Source: Thermoleophilia bacterium (GTDB taxonomy: Bacteria > Actinomycetota > Thermoleophilia > UBA2241). Taken from it: a stretch of 57,474 bases of DNA. The position numbers and the translations under genes were made by a program. The DNA lies in assembly GCA_016933475.1 (NCBI GenBank), contig JAFGAW010000279.1, positions 1 to 57,474 on the forward strand, given 5' to 3'. Shown here in pieces: positions 10,591-50,987 of the stretch. The first letter of the stretch is position 1. Each line of letters opens with the position of its first letter. The notes beneath the pieces were generated by a model. It was not told the origin of the DNA, did not search any database, and saw nothing but the letters and a program-made list of their open reading frames with translations.

Positions 10591-10592
10591 CG

Positions 10593-23821: not shown

Positions 23822-23849
23822 GTATCGGTCCCGCCGGAAGCAGGCTTGA
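23822..23849 (-). promoter_or_regulatory. Putative sigma28 (WhiG/FliA-type) promoter of the pilin operon
   Basis: TCAA-N16-ACCGATAC, ending 37 nt upstream of the ATG at 23784. Confidence 0.6.
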
Positions 23850-23961
23850 CGTTGACGCGGAGGCGTGATGACACGGCTGTGAGCCCGCCTAGGCTCGCGA
23901 GAGCCGGGTGTCGCCGGGCTTGGCGACGCTTTCGCCGTCGTCAGGCCGGGAATGGGCGGGG

Positions 23962-29171: not shown

Positions 29172-29268
29172 GTCGTACCCTCTCTCCCCGTGCCGCCGCC
29201 CGCGACCCCACCCCGTCTAGTTTACCCGCAGGGGAGGCGGGGACGGTGACTGGTTCTCTCACGTCATA

Positions 29269-29296
29269 TTGTCGACGGCTGGGTGGTGCAGCTTAA
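29269..29296 (-). promoter_or_regulatory. Putative sigma28-type promoter of the diguanylate cyclase
   Basis: TTAA-N16-GTCGACAA, same spacing as the other two candidates. Confidence 0.45.
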
Positions 29297-29439
29297 CGTG
29301 GCCGAGGCCTGATGTGTGTGTCGGCGCGCAGGTACGCCCGGCGTGGACACGCGAGCGGCGAGTGGGCGGGGCAGTCGGCGGCCGCTGTCAGGGGAGCGGG
29401 GGGGCGGCGCTCCGGTCGCCGCCGCACCCCGCCGACGCG

Positions 29440-30273
29440 TCAATCCCCGTCGTACGGGGCGAGCTTGAGGATTCGGCGCGCCTCGTCCGGAGTCGCGCAC
29501 TCTCGGCCCCACTCGGCGGCGAGGCGCGCGACGCGCGCCACGAGCTGGGCGTTGCCCTCGGCGAGCACACCCTTGTGGTAGAAGATGTTGTCCTCGAGCC
29601 CGAGGCGCACGTTGCCGCCCAGCGCGAGCGCCGTCATCGTCACCGGCATGTGCCAGCGGCCGATGCCGGTCGCCGTCCAGGTCGAGGTCTCCGCGGGGAT
29701 GCGGTCGACGAGGAAGGCGAGGTTGCGCGGCTCGCCGGTCATCGAGCCCGGCACGCCGAGCACGAAGTCCCAATGCATGAGCGGGCCCGCCGGGCCGAAC
29801 TGCTTCACCAAGCGCAGCGCGTTCTCGATCTGGCCGGCCTCGAAGATCTCGAACTCGGGGCGCACGCCCTTGGCCTGCATGCGCGTGTAGAACTCGCGCA
29901 TCAAGGCCGTGTCGTTGAAGAAGACCTCGTCGCCGAAGTTCGCCGTACCGGTCGTGAGCGAGGCCATCTCGGGATCGAGCTCGAGCGGCTGCAGGCGTTC
30001 GTCGGCGGTCATGCCCATGGCGCCGCCGGTGGACGTCTGGACGATGATGTCGGTGCGCGTGCGGATCTCGGTGAGGGCGGCGGCGAAGACGTCCTTGTCC
30101 TGGGTCGGGCTGCCGTCGGGCCGGCGCACGTGCAGGTGGTAGATGGCGGCGCCGGCTTCGCGACAGCGGGCCGCATCCTCGCCGATCTCCTGTGCCGATA
30201 TGGGCAGGTTCGGCTGCGCCTCCCTCGTCGTCTCGGCGCCGACGCCGGCGACGGTGATGATCAGCTTGTCCAT
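29440..30273 (-). CDS. kce: 3-keto-5-aminohexanoate cleavage enzyme (BKACE/DUF849)
   Basis: MDKLIITVA..GAETTREAQPNLP (keeps the Glu typical of true Kce), HLH Zn motif, STGG, GT.NFG, RLGLEDN. Confidence 0.9.
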   Translation of the reverse strand: MDKLIITVAGVGAETTREAQPNLPISAQEIGEDAARCREAGAAIYHLHVRRPDGSPTQDKDVFAAALTEIRTRTDIIVQTSTGGAMGMTADERLQPLELDPEMASLTTGTANFGDEVFFNDTALMREFYTRMQAKGVRPEFEIFEAGQIENALRLVKQFGPAGPLMHWDFVLGVPGSMTGEPRNLAFLVDRIPAETSTWTATGIGRWHMPVTMTALALGGNVRLGLEDNIFYHKGVLAEGNAQLVARVARLAAEWGRECATPDEARRILKLAPYDGD

Positions 30274-30314
30274 CGTCATCCCCCCCCTGCTCAGTCGGAC
30301 TGCGGCGGGCCGGC

Positions 30315-30355
30315 GGTGACGGGGCGGGCCGGCTGTGCCGGCCCGCCCCGTCACC
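30315..30355. terminator. Perfect 19-bp stem hairpin between kat and kce (terminator/attenuator or mRNA stabiliser)
   Basis: GGTGACGGGGCGGGCCGGC-tgt-GCCGGCCCGCCCCGTCACC. Confidence 0.6.
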
Positions 30356-30360
30356 CGGGG

Positions 30361-31629
30361 TCACGCGCCGTAAGGATACTCCTGCGCCACGTAAGCGAGG
30401 CTCTCCTCGACCACCTCGAGCGCCCGCGCCAGATCCTCCTCGGTGTGCCGGTAGGCGATGTACCAATGGTGGTACGGCTGCACGAAGAGGCCGCGACGGA
30501 TGCACTGCGTGTAGAACTCGGTGCGCCGCTCCTTGTAGTGGTCGTCGACCTTGTCGAAGGTGAGGAACGGCATGGGCGGGATGCCGCTCTTGGTGACCGG
30601 CACGCCGGAGGCGTCGACGATCTCGCCGAGGCGCTCGAGGAAGCGCGTGCCGCGCTCCCAGATCACGTTCTGCACGTCCTCGCGCTCGAGGATGTCCATG
30701 CACTTCATGGCGGCGACCATCTCGAGGCTGTTGGGGAAGAACGTCGAGCTGAGGAAGGCGACCTTCTCGTACATCGAGAGGACCTCGCGCTTGCCGACCA
30801 CGGCGGCGATCGGGTAGCCGTTGGCCATCGCCTTGCCCACGGTCGTCAGGTCCGGCGTGACGCCGTAGCGCTGCTGGGCGCCGCCCATGGCGACGCGGAA
30901 GCCGGTGCGGATCTCGTCGAAGATGAGGACGGCGCCGTTCTTGTGGGCGACGTCCTTGACCTTCTCGAGGTAGCCCTCGGGCGGCGGGATGATCGGCAGC
31001 GCCATCGGGTGCCCGACCGGGGTGATGATGACGGTCGCGATCTCCCCCGGGTTCTCGGCGAAGACCCGCTCGAGGTCGGCGATATCGCCGTACACGAACT
31101 CTTTGGTGAGGTCCTGGACGGCCTGCGGGATGCCGCCCTTGACCTCGACACACCAGTCACCCCAGCCGTGGTAGCCGCAGCGCGCGATCTTGTCGCGGCC
31201 GGTGTAGGCGCGGGCGGCGCGCACGGCGGCGTTGGTCGCGTCGGAGCCCGTCTTGACGATCATCGTCTGCTCGCCGCAGGGGAGGACCTCGACGAGGCGC
31301 TCCTCGAGCTCGTTCTGAACGGGCTGCACCAGGCTGAAACAGAAGCCCTGGTCCATGCGTGCCTTGACCGCCTCGTTGATCTCGGGCTCGACGTAGCCGA
31401 GGATGATCGGCCCGTAGGCGCAGAGCATGTCGATGTACTCGTTGCCGTCGACGTCGAAGATGTGCCCACCCTTGCCGTGCGTGATGAACACCGGGTACTC
31501 GCCGACCACGAAGTTGTACGGTCGCCGGATGCCGCCGACGCCGCCGGGCGTGAGACGGTAGGCGTCCTCGAGCATGCTCATCGACTTCGCGAGCTCGAGC
31601 TTGGGGGCGCTCTCGACGGGCTTCTTCAT
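30361..31629 (-). CDS. kat: 3-aminobutyryl-CoA aminotransferase (class III PLP)
   Basis: PGGVGGIRRPYNFV.GEYP, LCAYGPII, GYHGW.DWCVEVKGGIP, GKAMANG, FLSSTFFPNS, QPYHH resemble Kat of Ca. Cloacamonas acidaminovorans as recalled. Adjacent to kce. Confidence 0.82.
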   Translation of the reverse strand: MKKPVESAPKLELAKSMSMLEDAYRLTPGGVGGIRRPYNFVVGEYPVFITHGKGGHIFDVDGNEYIDMLCAYGPIILGYVEPEINEAVKARMDQGFCFSLVQPVQNELEERLVEVLPCGEQTMIVKTGSDATNAAVRAARAYTGRDKIARCGYHGWGDWCVEVKGGIPQAVQDLTKEFVYGDIADLERVFAENPGEIATVIITPVGHPMALPIIPPPEGYLEKVKDVAHKNGAVLIFDEIRTGFRVAMGGAQQRYGVTPDLTTVGKAMANGYPIAAVVGKREVLSMYEKVAFLSSTFFPNSLEMVAAMKCMDILEREDVQNVIWERGTRFLERLGEIVDASGVPVTKSGIPPMPFLTFDKVDDHYKERRTEFYTQCIRRGLFVQPYHHWYIAYRHTEEDLARALEVVEESLAYVAQEYPYGA

Positions 31630-31842
31630 CTGGGCTCCTTTCGACCGCGGGCGCGGAGAGGGTCAGGGTAGCGCGGAGCGGGGGACCCGCTGCGCGGGGC
31701 CCGGAGGACGCAGACGGATGGGAAGCTGCGCCGCATGGTGTACCTCCTCGGCCGGCCGCGGGCCGCCCTGCCCGCGCGCCGCGCGGGAGCGCGGCCGGCG
31801 CGCCGCGCGCCCGCCGAGGGCGGGCGCGCTACCGGCCCCAGC

Positions 31843-32880
31843 CTATCGAATCGGCGGCGCCTTGGCATCCCCGGTGAGGGGCGCAGCCGCCCCCGTCCCG
31901 GTGCCCGCCGCGCCCCCTGTGCCCGCCTCGGGCCCTGCGGCCACCTCGAGCGGCGGCCTCCCGGGTTCGGGTGCCACATCGGCGGCCCCGTAGCGCACGA
32001 TGAGCAGACCGGCCGCCACGATGAGCGCGCCGCCGCCGAGCGTGGTCACGGCCGGCGTCTCGCCGAGTAGCACGAGCGCGTAGAGCGGCGCGCTCACAGG
32101 CTCCAGGTAGCCGAGGATCGAGGCGTGCTCGACCCGCACGCGGCGCACGCCCTCGATGTAGAGCATGTAGGCGAGCGCGGTGGCGAAGAGGCCCATCGCT
32201 ACCGCCGAGACCCAGTCGCGTTGCGTGAGACCCTGGTCCATGCCCGCCGCCTGCCAGAGCGCCAGCGGCAGCAGGAAGACGATGACGCACGTCAACTCGA
32301 CCAGCACGATGGTCGAGCTGCGCACCTGGCGCGAGACCGACTTCACGATCAGCTGGTAAGCGGCGAAGAGGAGCCCGGTGGCGACTCCGCAGGCGAGCCC
32401 GGCAAGCGACACGTCACCGGCGCCGACGAAGGCCGGCAACAGGATCGCGACCATGCCGGCCAGTGCGACGACGAGGGCCGGCGCCACGATGCGGTCGGGC
32501 CGCTGCCCCATGATGCGCGGCGCCAGGAGGGCGACGTACACCGGGGCCATGAAGAGCAGGAACATGCCGATCGCCACATCTGTGAGCCGCAGAGTGACGA
32601 AGAAGAGCAGCAGGCAGGTCGGACTGATGACCCCCATCAGGAGAAGCCGGCCTCGCACCGCGCACGCACGGAGCTCGGTGAACGTCGCGCGCCGCGCGAA
32701 CAGTGCGCCGAGCACCGCCACCGCGATCGCCATGCGCACGACGATGAGGACGCTCTCGGGGGCGTCGGCGTACCGCACCAGCGCCCCGATCGATCCCCAG
32801 ACGAGGTAGGTGACGGCCAGCAGGGCGTAGCCCTCGAGCATGACGGGCGTCCGTCGTCCACCCTGAGCCGCGACCGTCAT
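31843..32880 (-). CDS. EamA/DMT family transporter
   Basis: About 10 hydrophobic segments, HASILGYLEPV motif. Confidence 0.85.
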   Translation of the reverse strand: MTVAAQGGRRTPVMLEGYALLAVTYLVWGSIGALVRYADAPESVLIVVRMAIAVAVLGALFARRATFTELRACAVRGRLLLMGVISPTCLLLFFVTLRLTDVAIGMFLLFMAPVYVALLAPRIMGQRPDRIVAPALVVALAGMVAILLPAFVGAGDVSLAGLACGVATGLLFAAYQLIVKSVSRQVRSSTIVLVELTCVIVFLLPLALWQAAGMDQGLTQRDWVSAVAMGLFATALAYMLYIEGVRRVRVEHASILGYLEPVSAPLYALVLLGETPAVTTLGGGALIVAAGLLIVRYGAADVAPEPGRPPLEVAAGPEAGTGGAAGTGTGAAAPLTGDAKAPPIR

Positions 32881-33857
32881 CCCTGGAGTTCCGGCTGGGT
32901 CTCGCCGCCGAAGGCGACGACCATGAGGCCGGCGAGCACGATGAGCGCACCACCGGCGATCGTCCACGACGAGGGGCGCTCGCCGAGGAAGACGAAGGCG
33001 TAGACGGGCGCCGTGACCGGCTCCAGGTAGCCCATGATCGGGGCGTGCTGCACTTTGATGTACCGGAGCCCGTCCATGAACAGGCTGAAGGAGAACGCGG
33101 TCGCGACGAGGCCGAGCAGCAGCCCGATCACGAGGTCGGTCGCCGTCGGCGTGTAGCGCCCGACCACCTCATACAGCCCGAGCGGCAGGACCGCCAGCGT
33201 GGTGAAGGCGCTCTGCACGAAGACGACCGCCGTGCTGGGGACGTGTCGCCGCTGCAGCGACTTGCCGAGCAGGAGATAGACGGCGTACAAGACCCCAGCG
33301 CCCCAGGCATAGAGCAGGCCGAGCACCGAGAGGCGAGCCTCGGCGAGCCCGGGCACGAGGATGAGAGCCATCCCGCCGAGACTCACGAGGAGGGCCACGT
33401 ACACCGCCGGCTCGGTCCGCTCGTGGAAGATGAGCGGGGCGACGACCGCGAGGTAGACCGGAGCCAGATACGAGAGGAAGATCGCCACCGAGACCCCGGC
33501 CTCCCTGATGGCGAAGAAATAGAGCAGCAGGTTGACGGCGAGGGTGGCGCTGATGCCGAGCACGCGGACGGGGACGCCGGGCGCGCGCAGCGTGCCAAGC
33601 AGACGGCGGGGCAGCACCACGCCGCCGAGGGCCAGAGTGGCGAACGCCATGCGCACGACCAGAAGCATGCTCGCCGGCATCGTCGCAGAACTGACCATCG
33701 TACCGATGGAGCCGTTGACGACCGCGGCGCCGCCCGTCTCGATGTAGCCGCGCAGGCGGCCGGGGCGCCCGTAAGCGGGCGCCCCGGCCGCTTCGTGATC
33801 GAGCGGTGCCGCCCCCTGCAGGCCCTGCGCCGTCGCGCTCTCAGGCCCGAGGGGCAA
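32877..33857 (-). CDS. EamA/DMT family transporter (tandem paralogue); start uncertain
   Basis: HAPIMGYLEPV motif and collinear with the neighbouring EamA. TTG at 33857 is assumed as start. Confidence 0.8.
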   Translation of the reverse strand: MPLGPESATAQGLQGAAPLDHEAAGAPAYGRPGRLRGYIETGGAAVVNGSIGTMVSSATMPASMLLVVRMAFATLALGGVVLPRRLLGTLRAPGVPVRVLGISATLAVNLLLYFFAIREAGVSVAIFLSYLAPVYLAVVAPLIFHERTEPAVYVALLVSLGGMALILVPGLAEARLSVLGLLYAWGAGVLYAVYLLLGKSLQRRHVPSTAVVFVQSAFTTLAVLPLGLYEVVGRYTPTATDLVIGLLLGLVATAFSFSLFMDGLRYIKVQHAPIMGYLEPVTAPVYAFVFLGERPSSWTIAGGALIVLAGLMVVAFGGETQPELQG

Positions 33858-35640
33858 ACTGCAACCGCCGCGTGAAGACCTCGTTGAAGCGCGCGTCGGT
33901 CGCCAGGTCGAGAAATTCGATACGTGCACGCAGGGCGGCCATACGCCGGCGCGCGCCCACGTCGATCAGGGCCATTTGCGCGCCGACGCCGGCAGCGTTG
34001 CCGACAAAGGCCACCCGGTCGCGCGACACCGGGGGCAGAAGGTCGAGGCGCAGGGCCGCGCCGACGTCGAGATAGTTGCCGAAGGCTCCCGCAACGTACA
34101 CACGGTGCAGGTCGCCCGGCTCCAGTGCGAGCTTCTCGAGCAGCAGGAGCCAGCCGCTGGCGATGGCGCCCTTCGCGAGCTGCAGGGCGCGCACATCGTG
34201 CTGGGTGAAGACGATCGGCCCGATGGCGCCCTCGGTCAGCAGGTACTCGAGACCGTTCTCGCCCCTGCGGACCAGCTCATGGGGCTGCATCCGGCCGGTA
34301 TGGTCGACCACTCCGCTGGCGACGAGCCCGGCGAGCAGGTCGACCACGCCCGAGCCACACAGACCCAGCGCGGGCTGGTTGCCGATGGTCGCGACCTCGA
34401 CGGGCAGGCCGGCGTCGTCGATGCGCACGCGCTCGATGGCCCCGGCGACGGCCTTCATACCGTGGGTGATCTGGTAGCCCTCGAAAGCCGGCCCCGAGGC
34501 GCAGCTCGTCGCCGTGACGCGGCCGTCGAGCGCTACGGCGATCTCGGTGTTGGTGCCGATGTCGACGGCCAGGCAGGGCCGGCGCTTGGAGGCCAGGCGC
34601 GTCGCCGCGACCACGGCCAGCGCGTCGGAGCCGACGAAGCCGGCGATCGGCGGCGGGAAGTGCACGCCGCCCTCGGGGTTCATCGCCAGCCCGAGCTCGG
34701 CCGCGCGCAGCGTGAGCGGGTCGGCCACGGCGGGCGCGAACGGCGCCGAGCCGAGCCCGACGGGTGAGAGACCCAAGGCGAGATGGTGCATCGCCGTGTT
34801 GCCGACCACCGTCATGTCGTAGATGTGCCGGGGATCGACGCCGTTGCGCTCACAGAGCTCCCCGAGGACCTGGTTGATGCCGTCGCGCACGGCCGTCGCG
34901 AGCTCGCGCGCGCCGTCCGCATCGACAGCGCGGGCGATGCGCGAGATCACGTCCTCGCCGTAACGCATCTGCGGGTTCTCGGTCGCCTCCTGGTCGACCA
35001 GGCGGCCGGCCTCGAGGTCGAAGAGGTAGGCGATGACCTTGGAGGTGCCGATGTCGACGGCGGCGCCGTAGGCGACCGCCTGCACCTCGGGCGGCTCGGC
35101 GTCGATGACGCGCCCGTCGTACGAGGTGACCATCGCTCGCCAGCCGTGTCGCCGCAGGAGGTCGGGCAGCTCGCGGGTCGCGCCGAGGGCCGCCTGTCGG
35201 CCGTCGCCGCAGGCGACGCAGACCGCGAGCAGGCGCTCCTGGTCGGCGCGCTTGTCCTCGAGCGTGGCCGGCGGCAGCTCCATCAGTCGGCGCACCACGG
35301 CCGTCTTCGCCCGGCCGTGGTGCAGCTTGGAAGCCGTGAGGATCCGCCGCCGCCCACCGGCCTGTCGCACCTCGATGCTGACGCGCGCCGACACTGGACG
35401 CGCCTGACAGGCGAGACGCCACCCGTCTTCGCGAAGGTTCGCCGGAAGGCGTTTGGACTCGACCTCGGTGACCTCGCTGAGCTCGCCCGAACCCAGGCGG
35501 ACGAGACACTTGCCGCAGGTGCCGCGGCCGGCGCAGTCACTGGGGATCGCGATGCCGGCCGCGAGCAGCGCAGTCAGCAGGTCCTGCTCCTCGCCGATCT
35601 CAAGTGTCACCCCGACGGGCTCGATGAAGACCTTCGCCAC
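33841..35640 (-). CDS. Reductive activator of corrinoid proteins (RACE/RACo, ASKHA ATPase with N-terminal [2Fe-2S])
   Basis: CAGRGTCGKC...RLAC ferredoxin domain. DIGTS, NPQ..YGEDVISRI, DIGTNTE, GPAFEG, CGSG, AGAFGNY. Confidence 0.93.
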   Translation of the reverse strand: MAKVFIEPVGVTLEIGEEQDLLTALLAAGIAIPSDCAGRGTCGKCLVRLGSGELSEVTEVESKRLPANLREDGWRLACQARPVSARVSIEVRQAGGRRRILTASKLHHGRAKTAVVRRLMELPPATLEDKRADQERLLAVCVACGDGRQAALGATRELPDLLRRHGWRAMVTSYDGRVIDAEPPEVQAVAYGAAVDIGTSKVIAYLFDLEAGRLVDQEATENPQMRYGEDVISRIARAVDADGARELATAVRDGINQVLGELCERNGVDPRHIYDMTVVGNTAMHHLALGLSPVGLGSAPFAPAVADPLTLRAAELGLAMNPEGGVHFPPPIAGFVGSDALAVVAATRLASKRRPCLAVDIGTNTEIAVALDGRVTATSCASGPAFEGYQITHGMKAVAGAIERVRIDDAGLPVEVATIGNQPALGLCGSGVVDLLAGLVASGVVDHTGRMQPHELVRRGENGLEYLLTEGAIGPIVFTQHDVRALQLAKGAIASGWLLLLEKLALEPGDLHRVYVAGAFGNYLDVGAALRLDLLPPVSRDRVAFVGNAAGVGAQMALIDVGARRRMAALRARIEFLDLATDARFNEVFTRRLQFAPRA

Positions 35641-35731
35641 GCCAGCCTCCTGTCTGTCGCCGTTCGTCGTCCCGCGCGCATGCGTCGCATCGCGCGTCAG
35701 TCTCTGTCGCCGGTCGGCCCGTGACGGTCAC

Positions 35732-37036
35732 TCAGTGCGCGACCCGGAACGGCTCGGTGTGGATGTCCGCCATCAACGCCTTGCGGTCCTCGACCTTCTT
35801 CCAGCGCGTCCCCCACACGTCCTCGAGCGTCGGACCGGGCACGTCGAACAACTTCGCCACGCCGAGGCGTTCCCGCTCGGCCTCGCAGTCCTCACAGTGG
35901 CACTCGAAGACATAATCGTCGGGCTCCGTGTACTTGGTGATGATGCCCTCGTAGTTGCGCAGGACGGTCTGATGCTGCGACTGGGAGATCACGTAGTTGG
36001 GAAAGACGGGCGTCTTACCGCCGCCGCCGGGCGCGTCGATGATGAAGGTGGGCACGGCGAAGCCGGTCGTGTGACCCCTCAGGCTCTCGTAGATCTCGAT
36101 CCCCTTGGCCACTGAAGTACGGAAGTGACCGATGCCCTCCGCGAGATCGCACTGGTAGTAGTAGTAAGGCTTGACGCGGATCTTCACCAAGCCGAGCACG
36201 AGGCGTTTCATGACCTTGGCGCAGTCGTTGATCCCCCTCATGAGGACAGACTGGTTCCCCAGCGGGATGCCGGCGTCGGCGAGCATCGCGCAGGCGCGCG
36301 TCGACTCCGGGGTGATCTCCTTGGGGTGGTTGAAGTGGGTGTTCAAGTACAGCGGGTGGTACTTGCTGAGCATCTGGCACAACTCCGGGGTGATGCGCTG
36401 CGGGCAGACCACGGGCATACGCGAGCCGATACGCACGATCTCGACGTGTGGGATCTCGGTGACCTTCTGCAGGAGCCACTCGAGCCGCTGATCGCTGAGC
36501 GTCAGCGGATCTCCGCCGCTCAGCAGCACGTCACGCACGTCCGGATTGCGGCGGATATAGGTGAAGGCGTTCTCGTAGTCCTGCTCCGACACCGGGCTCT
36601 CGCTCTCGCCGACGATGCGCCGCCGCGTGCAGTGCCGGCAGTACATCGAGCACATCTCCGTGGTGATGAACAGCACCCGGTCGGGATACCGGTGCGTGAG
36701 CAAGGTGGTCGGAGCATCGACCGTCTCTGTCAGCGCGTCCTTCATGTCGGCCGCGCTGACGATCAGTTCGTTGGATCTCGGGACACCCTGCAGGCGCACC
36801 GGGCAGGTCGGGTCGTCCTGATCCATGAGCGAGGCATAGTAAGGAGTCACGGCGACGCGGAACTTGCCCATGCAGGTCTGCAGATCCGCCCGCTGCTGCT
36901 CGGTGAGGTTGAGGACCTGCTCAAAGTCCTCGACCGTCGAGAGACGGTGGCGCACCTGCCAGTGCCAGTCGTTCCACTGCTCGTCGGTGACGTCCCTGAA
37001 GAGCGGTATGTCACGGTAGTGCCTCGTATCGGTCAC
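35732..37036 (-). CDS. kamA: L-lysine 2,3-aminomutase (radical SAM, PLP)
   Basis: HRYPDR, CSMYCRHCTRRR, YQCD and IDAPGGGGK (both lysine-binding Asp present plus PLP Lys), C-terminal CHCEDC Zn site. Confidence 0.95.
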   Translation of the reverse strand: MTDTRHYRDIPLFRDVTDEQWNDWHWQVRHRLSTVEDFEQVLNLTEQQRADLQTCMGKFRVAVTPYYASLMDQDDPTCPVRLQGVPRSNELIVSAADMKDALTETVDAPTTLLTHRYPDRVLFITTEMCSMYCRHCTRRRIVGESESPVSEQDYENAFTYIRRNPDVRDVLLSGGDPLTLSDQRLEWLLQKVTEIPHVEIVRIGSRMPVVCPQRITPELCQMLSKYHPLYLNTHFNHPKEITPESTRACAMLADAGIPLGNQSVLMRGINDCAKVMKRLVLGLVKIRVKPYYYYQCDLAEGIGHFRTSVAKGIEIYESLRGHTTGFAVPTFIIDAPGGGGKTPVFPNYVISQSQHQTVLRNYEGIITKYTEPDDYVFECHCEDCEAERERLGVAKLFDVPGPTLEDVWGTRWKKVEDRKALMADIHTEPFRVAH

Positions 37037-37052
37037 GGAGTGCTCCTTCCCC

Positions 37053-41322: not shown

Positions 41323-41463
41323 GGACGGCGACCTCGCTCGTTGACCGACGACAGGGGTGGGGCAGGAGGAGGTCAGGCGTGGCCTGCCCCCTCAGGGCGC
41401 GGCCGAGCGAAGGTTACAGGCCGCAGGCGCGGTTGATCGTGCTGACGGAGTCCGCATGCACGC

Positions 41464-41476
41464 GGCTACTCTAGCA
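41464..41476 (-). promoter_or_regulatory. Extended -10 promoter TGCTAGAGTAGCC (identical copy at 44260-44272)
   Basis: The same 13-mer lies upstream of two minus-strand mttB transcription units. Confidence 0.5.
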
Positions 41477-41655
41477 CCGGCCCGTCGGCCGGTACACCTG
41501 CCGCGCGCGAGGACCGCGCGCCCCCCTCGCCCGCGCCGCTCGCGCGACGCGCGGGGCGCCGGTACAGTGAGCGCACGTGGCACGGAGAGCCGGCGGACGG
41601 CAGGTGCGGGCCAGCTCACTGTCTCCGCGACCGCGAGCCGAGAGGGGGCCGCAGC

Positions 41656-42741: not shown

Positions 42742-42809
42742 CCGACGCCGCGGTGTCCGCACCGCGAGCGCAGACGTCACCGAGTCCGGCGCGCGCCGTC
42801 GGCGCCCGC

Positions 42810-44228
42810 CTACGAAGCGTGCGCCTCCCGCTCCTCCCCCGCTTTCGCGACCAGCACGGCCAGACCCGCGGCGACGTCCGCGTCGAGCTCGAACTCGCGC
42901 GGCTCGGCGAGCAGCGCCGCCGCGCGCTCCCGTGCCCTGTCGAGGAGGGTCTTCGAGCCCTCGGCCTGCCAGCGGTCGAAGACGCCGTGGTCGAAAAGGT
43001 CGGACTGCCAGATCTCGCGGAAGTGCTTCCTCGTGTAGGGCCGGGCCAGGTGGTTGCCGCCCGGCCCGACGGCGAGGATCTCCTCGACGGCGAGGGCCTC
43101 GTCGTCCACCGGCAGCTCGGCCATGAACGCCTTGGCGTAGCTCACCAGGTGGTCGCCGACGACGATCGACTCGTACGAGCTCTGCAGCCCCGACTCGAGG
43201 TAGCCGACATCGTGCAGCAGCGTCGCCCGCGACAGGGCGCCGAGCACGGCGGTGAGGGCGGCCTCGGCGGTCCACTGCTGGTCGAGCGTCTTCGAGTCAC
43301 AGCAGGCCGCGTAGGCGAAGCTCGGCAGGCCGTACCAGCGCGCGAGGTCGGTCTGCGCCTGGTGACCGGCGAAGACGCGCGCCGATGAGTACACGTCGAC
43401 CATGGTACGCATGTTCATGGCGCCGACGCCGGCGCCCCAGACGAAGGGCGCGCCGGCCTTCGCCGCCTGGCTCAGCACGAGACCGGCGAGCACCTCGGCG
43501 TTGGCGACGACGGCGACGGCGCCGATCGAGGCGGGCGCCGTCGTGCCGGCATTGGTCCCCGGGGCCCAGATGAGGGGTACGCCCAACTCGGCGCAAGCGA
43601 TGACTTTGCTCGCGCCGTCCTCGTCGAGCATGAGCGGCGGTGAGGGCATAGCGTAGATGCCGAAGCTGTCGGCGGCGCCGGCCAGCACGCACATCTCGCG
43701 GATCCTCGCCACCACATGGCCGTCGCGCGGCGCGACCAGGAGCGGCTTGCGCGTGCCACGGAGCATGGCCTCGACCTGGGCGACGTCGTCGACCGCCTGT
43801 GGCACGTCCTCGGGCAGGCCCATGGACATGACGAAGTCGAGGTTTTCGAGCTTCTCGCAGAGGACGGCCTGACCCTCGACGTCGGCCTTGCGCACGCGGC
43901 GGCGCTCGCCGGTCTCGAGGTCTCTCAGGTAGAGGACGTCGGAGCCGGTGCCGAAGTAGCTGTGGGCCACGTCGAGGACGAGCGGCTCGGTCGCGCCGGC
44001 GCGCGGCTTCAGCGACCAGGTGCGCGGCGCGATCTCGAGCGCGGTCTCGACCACGGGCGCGGGCAGGCGGACGCGCGTGCCCTCGACCCGCGCGCCGGCG
44101 GCGGCAAAGAACTCGCGTGCCGGCGCGTACTTGACCTCGACCCCGGACTCGGCCAGCACGCGCAACGTGGCCTCGTGCACCCGGTGGCACGCGTCGTCGT
44201 CCCACACCCTCAGCATCGCGCTGTTCAC
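42810..44228 (-). CDS. MttB-superfamily methyltransferase (non-Pyl), paralogue 5; close relative of paralogue 3
   Basis: VWDDDACHRVHEATL, FGTGSD, DSKTLDQQ, LSRATLLHDVGYLESGLQSSYE, VGPGGNHL. Confidence 0.92.
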   Translation of the reverse strand: MNSAMLRVWDDDACHRVHEATLRVLAESGVEVKYAPAREFFAAAGARVEGTRVRLPAPVVETALEIAPRTWSLKPRAGATEPLVLDVAHSYFGTGSDVLYLRDLETGERRRVRKADVEGQAVLCEKLENLDFVMSMGLPEDVPQAVDDVAQVEAMLRGTRKPLLVAPRDGHVVARIREMCVLAGAADSFGIYAMPSPPLMLDEDGASKVIACAELGVPLIWAPGTNAGTTAPASIGAVAVVANAEVLAGLVLSQAAKAGAPFVWGAGVGAMNMRTMVDVYSSARVFAGHQAQTDLARWYGLPSFAYAACCDSKTLDQQWTAEAALTAVLGALSRATLLHDVGYLESGLQSSYESIVVGDHLVSYAKAFMAELPVDDEALAVEEILAVGPGGNHLARPYTRKHFREIWQSDLFDHGVFDRWQAEGSKTLLDRARERAAALLAEPREFELDADVAAGLAVLVAKAGEEREAHAS

Positions 44229-44457
44229 ACCCGACCTCCTCTGCGGCTCCTCCGGCGGCGGCTACTCTAGCATCGTCCCGGGGCGCGCGTGGGCCCGCCG
44301 GCGCCGACGTCGCGCGGGCAGCGGCCAGGCGGCGGCGTCGTGAACGTCACGGCCGAGCCGCGGCGAGGCCTGCGGCGACGGGCGTGCGAAGTTCGCGCGG
44401 CGCCGCGACGAGCGTCGCCGATGCTTGGGCGAACCTCGGTCGCCGTGAGCCCCGCCC

Positions 44458-44486
44458 TTTACCCCACCCGGCGGCGGAGGTACTGT
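44458..44486 (+). promoter_or_regulatory. Putative sigma70-type promoter of the Pyl-mttB
   Basis: TTTACC-N17-TACTGT, followed by GGAGGT RBS and GTG at 44517. Confidence 0.5.
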
Positions 44487-44516
44487 GAGGTCGAAGGGGC
44501 TCCCGGAGGTGATCAC

Positions 44517-45986
44517 GTGAAACGCAACCTACACGCCGGACATGCGCGCAGCGGCGGCCTCAGCCTCAACGTCTTCACCGAGGCCGAGATGGACGACATC
44601 CACTTCGCGACCCTGGAGGTGCTCGAGCGCACCGGGGTCTGGGTCGAGGACGACGACGCGCTCGACGTCTTCGCCGACGGCGGCTGCCGTGTCGACCGCG
44701 AGACGCGCCGGGTCAACATCCCGCCGCACGTCGTCGAGGAGGCGATCCGCTCCACTCCGGCCAGCCTCGTGCGCGGGGCGCGCGACCCGAAGGACCGGCT
44801 CCTCCTCGAGCCGGGTCGCGTCTCGTTCTGCAACTTTGACGAGGGCATCATGGTCAACGACCTGCGGACCGGCGAGCATCGTGAGCCGGTCCTCCAGGAC
44901 GTCGCCGAGATCGCCCGCTTGGTCGACGCCCTCGACCACATCGACATGTACGAACCGGCGGGCAGCCCGACGGACCGACCGCAGGAGACCGCCGTGCTGC
45001 ACGGCACAGAGGCGGCGCTGCACAACACGACCAAGCCGGTGGGGACCGAGTCGACCTCCGCCTGGGAGGTGCGCAAGGTCCTCGAGATGGGGGCCGCGGT
45101 CGTCGGCGGCGTGGACGAGCTCCGCGAAAACCCGATCGTCGGTTTCGGCGTGTGCCCCGTCAGTCCGCTGAAGCTGCCGCGCGACGCCACCGAGGTCGTC
45201 ATCGAGTGCGCGCGGAACGGGATCCCCTGCGGCTGCCTGTCGATGGCGATGTCCGGCGGATCGTCGCCGGTCACGCTCATCGGCACCTTCGTGCAGCACA
45301 ACGCCGAGGTGCTCGCCGGCATCACGCTGGCCCAGCTCACGACCCGCGGCACCCCCATGGACTACGGCTCGTCGACGACCGCCATGGACCTGCGCCTGGC
45401 GGCGGCCAGCGTCGGCTCGCCGGAGCTGGCCCTGTTCAGCGCCGCGACGGCCCAGATGGCCAAGCGCTACCTCATACCGAGCTTCGTTGCGGGGTTGTAG
45501 GCGGATTCGAAGCTCGGTGACGCCCAGACCGGTCACGAGAAGACGCTCACCGGCCTGTTGGCTGCGTTGGCAGGGGCCAACCAGATCTACGGGGCCGGGA
45601 TGATCGAGTCGGGAGTCACCTTCGACTGCGCGCAGCTCGTCGTCGACGACGAGATCGCGGCGATGATCAAGCACACCGTGATGGGGATGCCGGTGGACGA
45701 CGAGCAGATGGCGGTGGAGGACATCGCCGCGGTCGGTCCGTTCGGTGACTTCCTCAGCCTCGAGGCGACCCTGCGCCACATGCGCGCGCTCAGCCAGCCG
45801 AGGTATCTCGACCGGCGCGTACGCGAAGACTGGAAGGAGCGCGGCGGGTCCGACCTCTACGAGCGGGCGCGGGCGGCGGCGCTGGAGATGATCGAGAGCC
45901 ACGCGCCCGAGCCGCTCGACCCCGACGCCGCGCGGCAGATCCGCGCCATCGTCGAGAGCGCGGATCGCGAGCGCGGCGTCGGCTGA
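44517..45986 (+). CDS. mttB: Pyrrolysine-containing trimethylamine:corrinoid methyltransferase MttB (489 aa; in-frame TAG at 45498-45500 = codon 328)
   Basis: ORFs 44289..45500 and 45558..45986 are in one frame. Readthrough gives IPSFVAGL-O-ADSKLGDAQTGHEKTL...AGANQIYGAGM, matching the Pyl context of Methanosarcina MttB. Also CPVSPL, SMAMSGGSSPVTL, HNAEVL, YGSSTT. Confidence 0.9.
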
Positions 45987-46088
45987 GCGCGGCCGCCGCC
46001 TGCCGGGGCCGGTCACTCGACGGGCGAGCGGACCGGCGCGACGGCGCAGTGTGCGTGGGTCTCGAGAGGCCGGCGGACCGTCCGTCGC

Positions 46089-46130
46089 ACGAGAGGGGCC
46101 GGGGTGCTCGCGCACCCCGGCCCCTCTCGT
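46089..46130. terminator. Perfect 19-bp stem hairpin between convergent mttB and ABC ATPase
   Basis: ACGAGAGGGGCCGGGGTGC-tcgc-GCACCCCGGCCCCTCTCGT. Confidence 0.75.
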
Positions 46131-46195
46131 CTCACCCCGGCCCCGAGGGCCCGAGAGCGGTCAAACGGATCGCGCAGCCTCGCGTGCGGGTGCGG

Positions 46196-47176
46196 TCACG
46201 AGTCGTCGGGCTCGCCCGGTCGGTCGGACGCGTCAAGCGGCATCTCGCCCCCCGGCCCCGGGCCGGTCGGCGTCTTCGGCAGATCGGTGCCGGGCTGGGC
46301 GATCGGGCTCGCGTCGTCGCCGGCCGCCTCGTATTCGTCCGTCATCTCAGTGATCCCGAGCTCGGCTGCGTGGCGCGGGTCGACCTCGGGCAGGATGTGG
46401 CGCAGGAACTGGCGCGTGCGCGGGTCCTTGGGGTTGAAGAAGACCTCGTCCGGCGGACCCTGCTCGATGAAGTAGCCCTCGTCCATGTAGACGACGCGGT
46501 CGGCCACATCGCGCGCGAAGCCCATCTCGTGGCTCACGACGATCATCGTCATACCGCCGTCGGCGAGCTCCTTCATCACCTTGAGGACCTCGCCGATGAG
46601 CTCCGGGTCGAGGGCGCTGGTGGGCTCGTCGAAGAGCATCAGCAGAGGGTCCATCGCCAGCGCGCGGGCGATGGCCACGCGCTGCTTCTGCCCGCCCGAG
46701 AGCTGGCTGGGGAAGTAGTCGACGCGCTCGGCCAGCCCGACCTTGGTGAGCAGCTCGTGCGCCTTCTTGACGGCGTCCTCCTTCTTCTCGCCCTTGACCA
46801 GGACCGGCGCCTCGATCACGTTCTCGGTCGCGTCCTTGTGCGGGAAGAGGTTGAACTCCTGGAAGACCATCCCGCACTTCATGCGGATCTCGTGGACGGC
46901 CTGCTTGAAGCCCTTGCCGTGGCCGCCGCACATCGCATGCACGCCGCCGATGCTGATGTCGCCGGTGGTCGGGTCCTCGAGGAAGTTGAGACAGCGCAGG
47001 AAGGTGCTCTTGCCTGAGCCGGACGGCCCGATGAGCACGATCACCTCGCCCTTGCGCACCTCGAGGTCGACGCCCTTGAGCACGTGCAGCTTGCCGAAGT
47101 ACTTCTGCAGGCCCTCGATCTTGACGATGACCTCGCGCTCGGCGAGCGGCACGCTTGCTGGAGACGGTGTGGCCAT
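46196..47176 (-). CDS. Polar amino-acid ABC transporter ATP-binding protein (GlnQ/ArtP-like) with acidic low-complexity tail
   Basis: [49 protein letters not shown]. Confidence 0.93.
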
Positions 47177-47180
47177 GCTG

Positions 47181-48386
47181 CTACTCCCTTGCCTTGTCGC
47201 GCTCCATACGGCGCTCGAGCTTCGCCTGCCAGAAACTGAAGAAGATGGTCAGGGCCCAGTAGAACGCCGCCGCGACGACCAGGGTCGAGAGGAAGTTGAA
47301 GGTCGCCGCTCCGGCGAGCTGGGCCCGTCGCAGCAGCTCCTCGACGGTGATCACCGACACCAGCGAGGTGTCCTTGATGAGGGCGATGAAGTCGTTGCCC
47401 ACTGCCGGGATCACGATCTTGAACGCCTGCGGCAGGATGATGCGGCGCTGGGTCTGCCAGCCGCTCAGGCCGAGCGCCCATGCCGCCTCGGTCTGGCCTT
47501 TCGGCACCGCCTGGATGCCGGCGCGGAAGACCTCGGTGAGGTAGGCCCCGTAGTTGAGCGACAGCGCCGCGACGCCGGCCCAGAACGCCGGCGGGTTGTA
47601 CTCGGGTGAGAAGCCGAAGCGCTGGATGACCTCGGGCGTGACCTGGTAGATGAAGATGATCTGCAGCAGGAGCGGGGTGCCACGGAAGAGTGAGGTATAG
47701 AAGGTCGCGATCAGATAGGGGATGCGGCCGAGCGCCATCCGCCACATATAGGCCCAGCTCCCGTAGCGCTCCCAGGCCTGTTTGAAGGTCATCTTCTTCG
47801 AGAGGCGACCGAGGGCGCCGAGGAGGGCGAGGATGCTGGCCAGCACGATCGAGATCACCGTCAGCGCGACCGTGTTGATGGCCCCCTCGGCGATGAAGCG
47901 GAACCACGTGCGCATGACGTTGAAGCTGAAGAGCTGGCCCGCTCCGGCGCGACCCTCCGAGGCGAAGCTCCACTCGTACTCCACGGTCTCGCCGGTCAGC
48001 GTGACCAGTTCCACCCTGAACTCGTAGTCGCCCTTCTCGTACCGCGTGTCCCACTTGAACTGGATGCCGGAGGTGGCCCGGGAGATCGCCGGCACCTCGC
48101 TCGGCGGGCGGATGAGCTCCTGCTCCTGACCGTTGATGAAGAGCCGGCACTGATCGAAGGCCAGCTCGGCCCCGTTGGGCTCGTAGTTGACGATGACCTG
48201 GGTGCCCGTCCAGGTGCTGACGCCCTTGGGGTCGTCGGGGTTCGGGATGACCCCCGTGACGACAGGCGTGCCCGGTGCCGGGCTGGCGGTCGTCTCCTGG
48301 CCCAGCGCCACCGGCGTGAGCGCGGTCACCGCCAAGGCGAGCGCCGCGGCGAAGAGAGCGACGCTCCGGTACAACCGTCTCTGCAT
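47181..48386 (-). CDS. Polar amino-acid ABC permease (HisM-like) with N-terminal signal peptide and extracytoplasmic beta-rich domain
   Basis: [41 protein letters not shown]. About 150 extra N-terminal residues. Confidence 0.9.
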
Positions 48387-48492
48387 GAGAGTGACCTCTC
48401 CTAGTGGCTTAGCGGCGGGGGGCCACTCCGGACCCCCCGCCGCCAGCGCTTCTGTCCGCGTCGATGACTCTAGCGCGCGACCGGAACGTCAG

Positions 48493-49374
48493 CTACTCAC
48501 GGACCGTCAGGTCGAGGCCGTTGTACCACTTCTTGGACATCTCCGTGAGCGAGCCGTCCTCGTGCATCGTGGCGATGGCGTAGTCGAGCAGCGCGACCCA
48601 GTCGGTCTCGCCCTCGGCGACGGCGAACGCGAGGTCCTCGTAGTACAGCGGCGAGCCCGAGAACTCGAACGCCTGGCCCTCGAGGATAGCCTGCTGGCCC
48701 GTGGGGCCGGCGGTCATCACGAAGTCGAGGTTGCCGTTGCGCAGGTCCGGGAAGGTGTCGGCGTCGGTCGTGTAGGTCTTGACCTCAGCCTCGCTCTCGC
48801 TCTTGAGGAAGTCGTAGTAGGTCGTCGCCGCGCCGACGCCGACCGTCTTGCCGGCGAGGTCTTCGACGCCGGTGATCTGCGGGCCGCCTTCCTTGACGAA
48901 CACCTGGCCGGACGTGAAGTAGTACGGCTGGGTGAAGTCGATGGTCTTATCGCGCTCCTCGGTGATCGTCATCGAGCCGATCGAGACGTCGAAGCGGCCC
49001 TGGTTGAGGCCGGCCGGGATGGTCTCCCACGCCGGGTTCTCGAACTGGACCTCAAGGCCGAGGATCTCGCCCATCCTGAGGGCGACGTCGACGTCGAAGC
49101 CGACGAGCTCGCCGGTCGCCTCGTCGATCGAGCTCTGCGGCGCGTAGTTGGCGTCGTTGGCGACGATCACGGTGCCGCGCTCGACGATCTTCTGCGCCAA
49201 GCCGGTGGGCTCGCGCCCGAGGATCTCGGCGGCACGCTCGGCCGCGCTCCCCGTCAGCGCCGTCTCCTCGGCGGCCGGCTCTTCGGCCTCGTCGCCGCAG
49301 GCGGCCAGGGCGAACATCGCCACGGCCGCGAGGAGGACGACCGTCCCCAAGATGAACCACTTCCCCTTGCTCAT
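48493..49374 (-). CDS. Polar amino-acid ABC substrate-binding lipoprotein (SBP family 3)
   Basis: LAAC lipobox, DANYAPQS, GFDVD, SMTITEER...DFTQPYY, DGSL..MSKKWY. Confidence 0.92.
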   Translation of the reverse strand: MSKGKWFILGTVVLLAAVAMFALAACGDEAEEPAAEETALTGSAAERAAEILGREPTGLAQKIVERGTVIVANDANYAPQSSIDEATGELVGFDVDVALRMGEILGLEVQFENPAWETIPAGLNQGRFDVSIGSMTITEERDKTIDFTQPYYFTSGQVFVKEGGPQITGVEDLAGKTVGVGAATTYYDFLKSESEAEVKTYTTDADTFPDLRNGNLDFVMTAGPTGQQAILEGQAFEFSGSPLYYEDLAFAVAEGETDWVALLDYAIATMHEDGSLTEMSKKWYNGLDLTVRE

Positions 49375-49586
49375 GCTCCGTCCTTTCGATGATCTTCATC
49401 CCGTCCGCGCGCGACGCGACCTGGGACGGCCGCCGCCGCGCGTGCGACCCCCGCCGCAGACCGGGACTTACCGTGCCGCCTCTCCCCCGAGCGGCATGTG
49501 TCTCGATTTATACAGCAAGGAGGCGAGAACACAACCGCAGCAGGCTCGCCGGCCCTGCGACGGCCGAGCCCGAGGCGGTTCATACC

Positions 49587-50987
49587 TCACCCCAGCAGGC
49601 GCCGCAGCCGACGGTCGACGGCCGGTGCAAGGGCAGGCGGCTCATGCGTGCGGAGCAGATCGAGTGCCAGTTGCGCAGCGCGCGCGCGCGACGTCGGTGC
49701 GGCGGAAGTGGGCTCGACCAGCGGCAGCGCGAGCGAGGCCGACGCGCGCCCCTCCTGCGCCGCGACCGCGGCCGGTGGCCCTCGCCGGGCGGGTCGCGCG
49801 AGCGCCGGCTCGGGCGTCGCGCCGCCGAGTCCCGCCGCCACGGCGCGGGCGCGCTCGGCGACATCGACCGCGAGCAGCAGTTCTTCGCAGCTGAAGATAC
49901 GCCCGCCGGAGACCATCCCCACGCCGGTCAGCATATCGACGCCGGCGAGCAGTGACAGGTACGTGGTCGTGGCGTCGTCGAGGGCCGACTGCCACGAGGG
50001 CTCCTTGGCGCCCGACGAGTTGACGCCGCACTGTGTCGGGAGGCCGTAGTAGCGCCCTATGTCGGCCGTGGCGGCGCCCATCACCGTGTCCTCGGGCGCG
50101 CCGCCGGTGAAGTCCCCGGTCTTCAGGTCCATGACGCTGGGGATGAGGCAGATGAAGACCGGGGCGCCTGGAGCCGTCGCCTGGACGGCGGCCACGGCGC
50201 CCAGCGTCTCGGCGATGCCGACGACGAGGGAGCCGGCCATCGTGATCGGTGTGGTCGAGCCGCCCATCGGCATGCTGACGAACCCGATGGGCACCCCGGC
50301 GGCGGCGAAGACCAGACCGGCCTCTAGGGTGCCCTCGTCGTTGCCCAGGGGGGTGACCGTGCCGAGCAGGGCCGAGACCGGCGGCTCCGCACGCAGGCGG
50401 TCGTCGTCGTCGCCACAGAGAGTGCGGGCCATCTCGACCGCGACCGCAGCCTCCTGCGGCTCCACGACCGTCACGGTCTGCACGTGCTTGCCGGTGTTGG
50501 CGACGGCCTCGTAGAGCTCGTGGAGCCCGCGGACCTCGGCCGGCCGGTCCTGGGCGCTCACCGCCGGCCAGCAGAAGTCGACCGCCGGCAGGGCGTCGAC
50601 GAGGCGGGCGATCGCCGCCACGTCGGCGGCCGTCGTCGCCCGCTTCTCGCCGCTCTCGGGGTCGTAGATCTCGACGCAGCAGCCGTCCGTGGTGAGCAGC
50701 GAGCCGGCACCGGTCACCAGGGGACTCCCGGCGCGGGCGCCGAGCGTCAGCCGACGCGGCGCCCGCCCGACGAGCTCGCGCACGACGCCGGGCGGGATCG
50801 TGACCCGAGCCCCGTCGGCCGCGGCGCCGGCGGCGACGAGCGCCTCTCGGGCCCGCGCCGAAGGCACGCTGAACCCGACGCCGGCGAGCACGTCGAGGGC
50901 GGCTGCGTCGAGACGTCGCAGGTCGTCGTCGCCGAGGATCCTGAGGCGCCCGGCCGCGCCCGCGGCAGGGCTCTGCGTGTGTGTCAT
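49587..50987 (-). CDS. MttB-superfamily methyltransferase (non-Pyl), paralogue 7; eroded C-terminus
   Basis: NTGKHVQTVT, VTPL, GGSTTPITMAG, DLKTG..GGAPED. The conserved GPGG..FL..HT segment is replaced by Ala/Pro/Arg-rich sequence. Confidence 0.85.
   Translation of the reverse strand: MTHTQSPAAGAAGRLRILGDDDLRRLDAAALDVLAGVGFSVPSARAREALVAAGAAADGARVTIPPGVVRELVGRAPRRLTLGARAGSPLVTGAGSLLTTDGCCVEIYDPESGEKRATTAADVAAIARLVDALPAVDFCWPAVSAQDRPAEVRGLHELYEAVANTGKHVQTVTVVEPQEAAVAVEMARTLCGDDDDRLRAEPPVSALLGTVTPLGNDEGTLEAGLVFAAAGVPIGFVSMPMGGSTTPITMAGSLVVGIAETLGAVAAVQATAPGAPVFICLIPSVMDLKTGDFTGGAPEDTVMGAATADIGRYYGLPTQCGVNSSGAKEPSWQSALDDATTTYLSLLAGVDMLTGVGMVSGGRIFSCEELLLAVDVAERARAVAAGLGGATPEPALARPARRGPPAAVAAQEGRASASLALPLVEPTSAAPTSRARAAQLALDLLRTHEPPALAPAVDRRLRRLLG

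Follow-up and report, generated by a model that had tools for sequence, protein, structure and literature searches.

The 57,474-nucleotide contig JAFGAW010000279.1, from an uncultured Thermoleophilia bacterium (assembly GCA_016933475.1), carries at 29440–50987 an undescribed gene linkage between MttB-family methyltransferases and enzymes of lysine fermentation, one that gives a testable substrate hypothesis. A tight, co-oriented string joins three non-canonical MttBs of the type that lacks pyrrolysine (Pyl) to the pathway's entry enzyme KamA and to its exit enzymes, a Kat-like aminotransferase and Kce, and comparison with relatives confirms that the linkage is real and conserved. We interpret it as a catabolic island peculiar to one lineage of uncultured Thermoleophilia that are rich in MttB and use pyrrolysine, a lineage described as anaerobic and from soil and sediment. 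Tentatively, as something quite possible though short of probable, we propose that the island MttBs demethylate an N-methylated lysine-type amino acid whose product is then fermented. The literature searched, supplementary gene tables not included, yielded no description of such a linkage or of a methyl-lysine pathway.

The window (the whole contig just named, C272) belongs to a metagenome-assembled genome (MAG), here G000, whose assembly totals 2.49 Mb in 295 contigs and is 80% complete. At the window's GC content of about 70% raw lists of open reading frames (ORFs) are full of shadow frames; genes were therefore called by third-position GC (GC3) and then named with Pfam and NCBIfam. By GC3 calls and Pfam, all genes of 29440–50987 lie at the positions given in a first-pass annotation made from the letters alone, and the identities and order that it proposed stand: six mttB genes, one of them Pyl-type, a racemase and an ATP-binding cassette (ABC) importer, with the activase that it called RACE being of RACo type. 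Its inventory of six mttB genes is right for this interval and missed a seventh at 15170–17167. The features are as follows (PLP, pyridoxal phosphate; DMT, drug/metabolite transporter).

29440–30354, minus strand: Kce-type BKACE (kce); NF052387 equivalog
30361–31629, minus strand: HemL-like class-III aminotransferase, candidate Kat (3-aminobutyryl-CoA aminotransferase); PF00202
31843–32967, minus strand: EamA (DMT) transporter 1, with an ATG at 32880 overlapping the upstream stop; PF00892 in two stretches
32877–33929, minus strand: EamA (DMT) transporter 2, start probably 33857 or later; PF00892 in two stretches, TIGR00950 below cut-off
33841–35640, minus strand: RACo-type ATP-dependent reductive activase of corrinoid proteins; four RACo Pfam domains
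35732–37036, minus strand: kamA, L-lysine 2,3-aminomutase (radical SAM, PLP); TIGR03820 equivalog
37053–38426, minus strand: mttB_c (Bc), divergent non-Pyl MttB; PF06253, 181 bits
38423–39856, minus strand: mttB_b (Bb), non-Pyl MttB paralogue; PF06253, 259 bits, scored on the longer ORF 38423–40012
39853–41322, minus strand: mttB_a (Ba), non-Pyl MttB-family methyltransferase; PF06253, 329 bits
41656–42741, plus strand: Orr-like PLP racemase of alanine-racemase fold, divergent from the operon; PF01168, and NF040742 at 306 bits, below its cut-off of 480
42810–44228, minus strand: mttB_d (Bd), non-Pyl MttB paralogue; PF06253, 243 bits
about 44589–45986, plus strand: mttB_e (Be), predicted pyrrolysine-type MttB, start uncertain (44289–44619); two in-frame MTTB Pfam halves
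46196–47176, minus strand: ABC ATPase of a polar-amino-acid importer unit; Pfam
47181–48386, minus strand: ABC permease of the same unit; Pfam
48493–49374, minus strand: SBP_bac_3 binding protein of the same unit; Pfam
49587–50987, minus strand: mttB_f (Bf), non-Pyl MttB heading the ABC importer unit; PF06253, 211 bits
15170–17167: seventh mttB, non-Pyl, outside 29440–50987, real start probably later; Pfam

Gene spacing along the string is close throughout. Bb starts at a GTG that runs into the Ba stop (GTGA; an alternative ATG start lies 18 nt further in), Bc likewise at an ATG that shares letters with the Bb stop (ATGA), and 16 bp separate the Bc stop from the GTG start of kamA; gaps of 91 bp ahead of RACo, 213 bp ahead of the aminotransferase and 6 bp from aminotransferase to BKACE follow. 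Seven of the genome's 43 MTTB matches sit on this contig, which makes up 2.3% of the assembly, and gene-order conservation in relatives is a stronger argument against chance than this density.

That conservation extends across a whole family. Of 24 other genomes of the family 21 have kamA, against none of 16 that represent other families of the class, and among kamA-centred loci a same-strand mttB lies just upstream in 16 of 19 (the exceptions being L035, L036 and L045). Scanning with a profile of the Bc clade gave 60 loci from 55 species-representative genomes, nearly all labelled as Thermoleophilia, Actinomycetes or Actinomycetota MAGs; this set overlaps the kamA-centred one, and the two are therefore not independent. 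kamA occurs in 54 of these 60 loci (52 genomes). An mttB match on the same strand ends less than 400 bp upstream of it in 51 of the 54, the gap being 430–516 bp in the other three, and RACo lies less than 400 bp downstream in 48. Each of the six loci that lack kamA either runs into a contig end or represents a match to another paralogue at 28–33% identity; wherever downstream sequence existed, no Bc-type MttB was seen without kamA. The order that recurs in relatives is mttB–kamA–RACo–EamA–aminotransferase–BKACE. Around this core Ba, Bb, the Orr-like gene, the position of the ABC genes and EamA copy number vary, the Orr-like gene being found in only part of the family, and the number of upstream mttB genes ranges from 1 to 4. 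One relative (L039) has Bf, the binding protein, permease, ATPase, Ba, Bc and kamA through kce all on one strand. The neighbourhood comparison that the first-pass annotation had proposed for the mttB–kamA linkage thus finds it conserved family-wide and confined to that family.

Two candidate independent lineages were rejected. The 'Deltaproteobacteria' locus (L083, genome G425) belongs to the same Thermoleophilia family: with about 70% GC on all seven contigs examined, 28 MTTB matches, paralogues 50–88% identical and the order Bd–Ba–Bb, it appears to be a mislabelled member. A 'Chloroflexia' locus (50% GC) lacks kamA. Two MAGs each have two contigs carrying the full Ba–Bb–Bc–kamA–RACo string (L074/L080 and L100/L104), which could be duplication, strain mixture or bin contamination.

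The island MttBs stand among many paralogues. The 43 MTTB matches fall in 2.5 Mb and represent some 40 paralogues; six of eight relatives searched have 20–38 matches, and the other two have 0 and 2. Ba, Bb, Bc, Bd and Bf all give full-length PF06253 matches (181–329 bits against a cut-off of 25) with no in-frame stop inside them. In a tree of 74 MttB sequences the kamA-adjacent proteins (Bc) form one exclusive clade, 12–144 bp from kamA and with no other paralogue of the genome inside it, and the Bf clade is its sister. Ba forms its own clade, conserved upstream of kamA in most relatives, the Bb clade is present in only part of the family, Bd belongs to a conserved clade near the island, and the order of Bf, binding protein and permease–ATPase recurs in relatives. 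An exclusive Bc clade whose sister sits in an amino-acid ABC importer unit fits an amino-acid-like methylated substrate.

Compared with solved structures, Ba scores 260 bits to MttB (7XCL) and 247 bits to MtgB (2QNE/9YCE), and Bc, with the weakest family scores of the island MttBs, 127 and 98 bits. In MtgB, Y97 and F356 make cation–π contacts and R312 and H348 bind the carboxylate, and R312 is reported to be conserved in every characterised acidic-betaine MttB enzyme, those for γ-butyrobetaine and carnitine included (PMC13080624). Mapped by sequence alignment only, and with the Y97 column in a variable loop, the residues at Y97/R312/H348/F356 are G/A/N/S in Ba, G/L/S/G in Bc and G/Q/T/G in Bf. 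Bb has Phe at the R312 column and keeps His at that of H348, this His being all that Bd and Bb retain of the motif; Ba has Ala at the Pyl column. The R312-equivalent Arg is missing in all seven window MttBs. Only one of about 40 full-length paralogues of the genome (on C147) carries it, with His and Phe near the other motif columns, and the residue alignment is therefore informative. Because the Arg is missing in all of them and found in that paralogue, the island MttBs fall outside the characterised acidic-betaine group as far as sequence alignment can show, a point that counts towards the methyl-lysine proposal. Paralogues other than the C147 protein fall into several motif classes without a characterised counterpart.

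Two further loci of the genome combine MttB genes with related enzymes. On C75 (1717–5584, L053) an MttB accompanies a second HemL-like aminotransferase and a second, Kce-like BKACE (220 bits, below cut-off), without kamA; C95 (L054, 2977–10287) combines two MttBs with a pair of LysA/DokD-like decarboxylases and a second racemase of Orr-like type. In both, MttB genes again adjoin PLP enzymes of basic amino acids, which we count in favour of the methyl-lysine proposal.

On the lysine side, KamA passes the TIGR03820 equivalog (590 bits, the cut-off being 525), and the models for the glutamate and arginine aminomutases stay below their own cut-offs. Aligned to 2A5H (E = 5.5e-170) it conserves the CxxxCxxC motif (as CSMYCRHC) and the residues at D293, D330 and K337, of which we take the two aspartates to bind the primary ε-ammonium of lysine and K337 to be the PLP lysine. 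The genome has one copy of the gene. The BKACE clears the Kce equivalog NF052387 by a narrow margin (382.7 bits against 382), and scores 285 bits to the solved Kce 2Y7D from Cloacamonas versus 166 bits for the next BKACE structure. For the aminotransferase the best NCBIfam and PDB matches are glutamate-1-semialdehyde aminomutases, with all NCBIfam models below cut-off; there was no curated Kat model among the 25 of 69 families listed, and the gene is at most a candidate Kat. Kat itself is described as a HemL-like gene at the kal locus (PMC3149608).

The operon thus holds the first step and the last two steps of the lysine pathway, the rest being encoded elsewhere in the genome: KamD and KamE equivalogs, KamB and a thiolase on C232, and Kdd on C244 (by a model first identified in relatives). 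No Kal match over cut-off was found in the 80%-complete genome, which matches the Kat variant (PMC3149608). Taken together, these matches predict that the genome encodes a complete Kat-variant lysine fermentation of KamA, KamB, KamDE, Kdd, Kce, a Kat-like enzyme and thiolase, with Kat a candidate only. The first-pass annotation had read the string as part of lysine fermentation, and this is borne out by KamBDE and thiolase on C232, by Kdd on C244 and by the lack of a Kal match over cut-off. The gene that it named kat is HemL-like and lies 6 bp from kce in a genome in which no Kal was found, but its product scores below every NCBIfam cut-off and is a candidate Kat only. An ornithine-fermentation cluster is also encoded in the genome.

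Be has one in-frame TAG, at 45498–45500 and in the Pyl column; this is the stop codon at which its Pfam MTTB halves break (profile positions 334/359). An Rfam PYLIS_3 match spans 45498–45597, starting at the in-frame TAG (63.4 bits against a gathering score of 38), and the genome supplies tRNA-Pyl(CUA) at the edge of C76 and PylS (PylS_Cterm, 310.9 bits against a cut-off of 178) on C103. With its in-frame UAG and PYLIS, in a genome with tRNA-Pyl and PylS, Be is a predicted pyrrolysine-type MttB, and the earlier reading of one mttB as Pyl-type gains from all three of the latter features. Five MttB paralogues of the genome have a TAG at the Pyl column and form one clade that includes Be; in a sixth match the TAG falls at another place in the gene. 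C54 holds a canonical cluster of a split (Pyl-type) MtbB, a Pyl-MttB, a corrinoid protein and another MttB, and Be is the sister of this Pyl-MttB in the tree. The number of TAG-bearing paralogues hints at tertiary-amine substrates other than trimethylamine (TMA). TAG ends about 16% of confident ORFs in the genome, including one EamA gene of the window and Bd.

RACo has the Fer2, RACo_linker, Raco_middle and RACo_C_ter domains of Pfam, all over their cut-offs, and scores below the AcsV and RamA cut-offs of NCBIfam. It is the single tblastn match in the assembly. In a relative without kamA (G021) it is kept at the same syntenic site (MoeA, sortase, binding protein, RACo, GGDEF, UPF0182). A second RACo with a higher score occurs in three relatives; the one in G015 is a near neighbour of other MttB and corrinoid genes. 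Small corrinoid proteins of the genome are encoded on C54 and C103, and a 261-residue frame on C161 gives a B12-binding match; acetyl-CoA synthase (PF03598) was not found in the 80%-complete assembly.

Transport genes accompany the string on both sides. The ABC importer falls below the cut-offs of the NCBIfam lysine/arginine/ornithine, cystine and glutamine-type models; its best PDB matches, GlnPQ and basic-amino-acid binding proteins, are generic and not decisive for the ligand of the binding protein. The tandem EamA genes between RACo and the aminotransferase number from about 1 to about 7 copies in relatives (tblastn matches, L057–L116), and such an expansion inside one operon is unusual for a transporter. 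Higher EamA counts tend to go with the presence of Ba, Bb and Bc together, a trend confounded by phylogeny.

No sequencing run listed as containing the stretch is recorded as RNA. At the locus, two metatranscriptome runs of the study that includes the likely source sample yielded nothing beyond short contigs of low depth, some of them matching exactly within kamA, at the kamA 3′ end, in EamA transporter 2 and at the ABC ATPase/permease junction. No RNA contig in the two runs bridged mttB_c and kamA, and DNA carry-over is possible, so that these data are evidence neither for nor against co-transcription. A promoter and terminator scan of 29000–46200 gave no promoter-like site and one terminator-like site, the latter outside the operon; both counts lie below the shuffle means, and the scan is therefore uninformative in a 70% GC genome. 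At gathering thresholds the RNA elements of the window are two tRNA genes (17028–17101 and 18088–18159, minus strand) and the PYLIS, with no riboswitch, and permissive riboswitch scans of three intergenic regions gave nothing or a chance-level match.

Outside the island, an enolase-superfamily (MR_MLE) gene at 13984–15162 directly adjoins the seventh mttB, and an Opp/Dpp-type ABC system (SBP_bac_5, permease and fused double ATPase) lies beside it. Enzymes of the enolase superfamily racemise proline and hydroxyproline betaines, and the unit as a whole (7759–17167) looks like a separate one for betaine or peptide-type utilisation. On the minus strand, 22087–23874 encodes an fn3-domain protein whose N terminus carries a methylation motif like that of type IV pilins, and 27117–29171, directly after kce, a GAF-GGDEF(-HD) signalling protein that is syntenic in most relatives.

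How might these parts work together? In the proposed scheme an N-methylated lysine-type amino acid (N-ε-tri-, di- or monomethyl-lysine or a close basic analogue) would be imported through the adjacent polar-amino-acid ABC system, the EamA proteins or both. The MttB paralogues would move its N-methyl group or groups to a shared corrinoid protein encoded elsewhere, which RACo would keep in the Co(I) state, and the methyl group would pass on to tetrahydrofolate (THF). Freed lysine would then run through KamA, KamDE, Kdd, Kce, Kat and thiolase to acetoacetate and acetyl-CoA. A stricter version, in which the non-Pyl Ba, Bb, Bc, Bd or Bf act on the quaternary and perhaps the secondary amine and Be on the tertiary one, so that all three methyls of protein-derived N-ε-methyl-lysines are stripped and the lysine is fermented by the Kat-variant pathway, we consider unlikely. 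Trimethyl-lysine as the substrate, and its stepwise demethylation from tri- to di- to monomethyl-lysine, were the core of the first-pass proposal, and nothing in the present results identifies either.

Several observations weigh against the demethylation proposal even in its broader form. Its basis is guilt by association, which leaves it plausible but unproven. Characterised non-Pyl MttBs remove one methyl group each, and full demethylation to lysine would therefore be chemistry without precedent. They also act on quaternary amines (PMC13080624). KamA, keeping the two aspartates that we take as ε-ammonium ligands, should need a fully demethylated lysine. The window holds no B12-binding match or corrinoid protein, and no methyl-corrinoid:THF transferase turned up in it, though no search was aimed at one. 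RACo, being the sole copy here and being kept in G021, which lacks both kamA and the island MttBs, is a general factor and no evidence of coupling between demethylation and fermentation. Two kamA loci, L045 (G024) and L035 (one of two kamA copies in G020), lack the arrangement, L045 having no upstream sequence. Bc is under purifying selection that is 2–3 times more relaxed than that on its neighbours (ω, dN/dS, of 0.30–0.36 against 0.08–0.17 in the two closest genome pairs, in which the slowly evolving Ba has 0.09–0.11).

Much of the remaining contrary evidence speaks at the same time for the main rival, co-localisation without substrate channelling, in which the MttBs act on amines unrelated to lysine (unknown betaines, methylated polyamines or other tertiary or quaternary amines) and the gene order reflects shared regulation, cofactor economy (both arms being B12-dependent) or an ancestral order frozen in one MttB-rich family. 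We think this doubtful, and still a substantial possibility. With about 40 MttB genes per genome (43 matches here, 20–38 in six of eight relatives), some adjacency to any given pathway is expected. The general role of RACo and the missing corrinoid protein of the cluster fit this account too, as does the variation in which mttB genes lie upstream and in how many. MttB genes are missing altogether from G019 (94% complete), which keeps kamA–RACo–EamA–BKACE, KamD and corrinoid proteins all the same. In a sample of 400 genomes of the phylum, 14 outside the family have kamA (40–59% identity), and none of their 15 loci has mttB or RACo within 1.5 kb of it; being confined to one family, the linkage may trace to a single ancestral event and inertia, and the flanking GGDEF and UPF0182 genes are syntenic too. 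Against mere co-localisation, the Bc clade is found only beside kamA across 52 genomes while its surroundings rearrange, the genes are tightly spaced or overlap, and Bf, the clade sister to it, is linked to an importer of amino-acid type. Lysine genes and island MttBs are also jointly missing from G021, a 98%-complete genome without kamA, kamD or any island-type MttB, whose two MttBs are 34–39% identical to paralogues of the genome studied here. A lysine pathway that can occur independently of the MttBs, and a Bc that never occurs without kamA, form the pattern expected of a peripheral funnel into a core pathway, although very few independent events underlie it.

The lysine enzymes might instead act on trimethyl-lysine itself: KamA, the aminotransferase and the BKACE would take it through β-amino and β-keto intermediates, bypassing KamDE and Kdd, to acetoacetate and a γ-butyrobetaine-type CoA ester, the betaine then being demethylated by the MttBs. 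This would explain an operon that has these three enzymes and neither KamDE nor Kdd, the C75 group of MttB, BKACE and HemL-like aminotransferase without kamA, and an aminotransferase that passes no curated model. We nevertheless find it quite improbable, given that KamA scores over the cut-off of the lysine equivalog with its counterparts of D293 and D330 in 2A5H intact, that the BKACE passes the Kce equivalog and is far closer to solved Kce than to other BKACEs, and that KamBDE, Kdd and thiolase complete the classical route. The island MttBs moreover lack the Arg conserved in the γ-butyrobetaine and carnitine enzymes (PMC13080624). Very unlikely, in our view, is that Bc is no longer a methyltransferase and has an accessory, regulatory or binding role in lysine catabolism. 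Its family scores (181 bits with Pfam, 127 bits with 7XCL) are the lowest among the island MttBs, the residues in its mapped pocket columns are small and variable, its ω is 2–3 times that of its neighbours, and it is fragmented in some MAGs, though those assemblies show frameshifts in many genes; it is nevertheless of full length, conservation of its C-terminal region is strong, 62 columns are invariant among 8 orthologues, its ω is well below 1, and the ATGA overlap couples it translationally to Bb. There is, finally, only a very slight chance that KamA makes β-lysine for an osmolyte or secondary metabolite rather than for fermentation. Its best match is the model named after AblA (TIGR03820), and AblA in methanogens makes β-lysine for N-ε-acetyl-β-lysine, but the operon has no acetyltransferase, the string also encodes Kce and the Kat-like enzyme, and the genome supplies KamBDE, Kdd and thiolase.

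What does the linkage offer if the methyl-lysine proposal is followed? Most non-Pyl MttB proteins are without a known substrate, five characterised ones being named in PMC13080624, and the family-wide association gives at least one new MttB clade a concrete candidate class of substrate, methylated lysine-type amino acids. Were the proposal true, it would reveal a new anaerobic sink for methyl-lysines released from proteins, and would link methyl-corrinoid one-carbon metabolism to amino-acid fermentation in abundant uncultured Thermoleophilia of soil, wetland and sediment. Should the stepwise version hold, an amino-acid side chain would for the first time be seen to undergo corrinoid-dependent demethylation, the MttB superfamily would gain its first non-betaine substrate, and there would be the first evidence of multiple Pyl-MttB paralogues serving tertiary amines besides trimethylamine. 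Whatever the substrate, there is an actinobacterial family with 20–40 MttB paralogues per small genome and working-looking pyrrolysine machinery; the literature searched, supplements aside, gave no description of one.

Three known systems invite comparison. Pyl-dependent TMA demethylation (MttB, MtbB and MtmB with their corrinoid proteins) is matched by the TAG and PYLIS of Be and by the tRNA-Pyl, PylS, split MtbB and C54 cluster of the genome; unlike in that system, no corrinoid protein is encoded next to Be, which is a distinct paralogue linked to the island. In Eubacterium limosum several MttBs make use of a single corrinoid protein and a single methyl-corrinoid:THF transferase, an arrangement echoed here by corrinoid proteins encoded away from the island. 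The non-Pyl systems covered in PMC13080624 (MtgB for glycine betaine, MtcB for carnitine, MtyB for γ-butyrobetaine, MtpB for proline betaine and MthB for phosphocholine) each comprise a corrinoid protein, a methyl-corrinoid:THF transferase and a RamA/RACo-type activase. The island resembles them in having MttBs of the same superfamily, without in-frame TAG, and a RACo-type activase in the locus. It differs in that the similarity is only remote (Ba 260/247 bits, Bc 127/98 bits), with the R312 Arg missing and, in Ba and Bc, His348 and Phe356 missing as well, and in that the genes lie in a lysine-fermentation operon beside an amino-acid-type rather than a betaine-type importer. The nearest parallel on the fermentation side is 'Candidatus Cloacamonas acidaminovorans' together with a digester Bacteroidetes contig (PMC3149608), which share with this genome KamA, KamDE, Kdd, Kce, a HemL-like aminotransferase replacing Kal, and thiolase. 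In contrast to that Kat variant, the pathway here is split over at least three contigs of the assembly, and three MttB genes, RACo and EamA transporters sit among the genes for its first and last steps.

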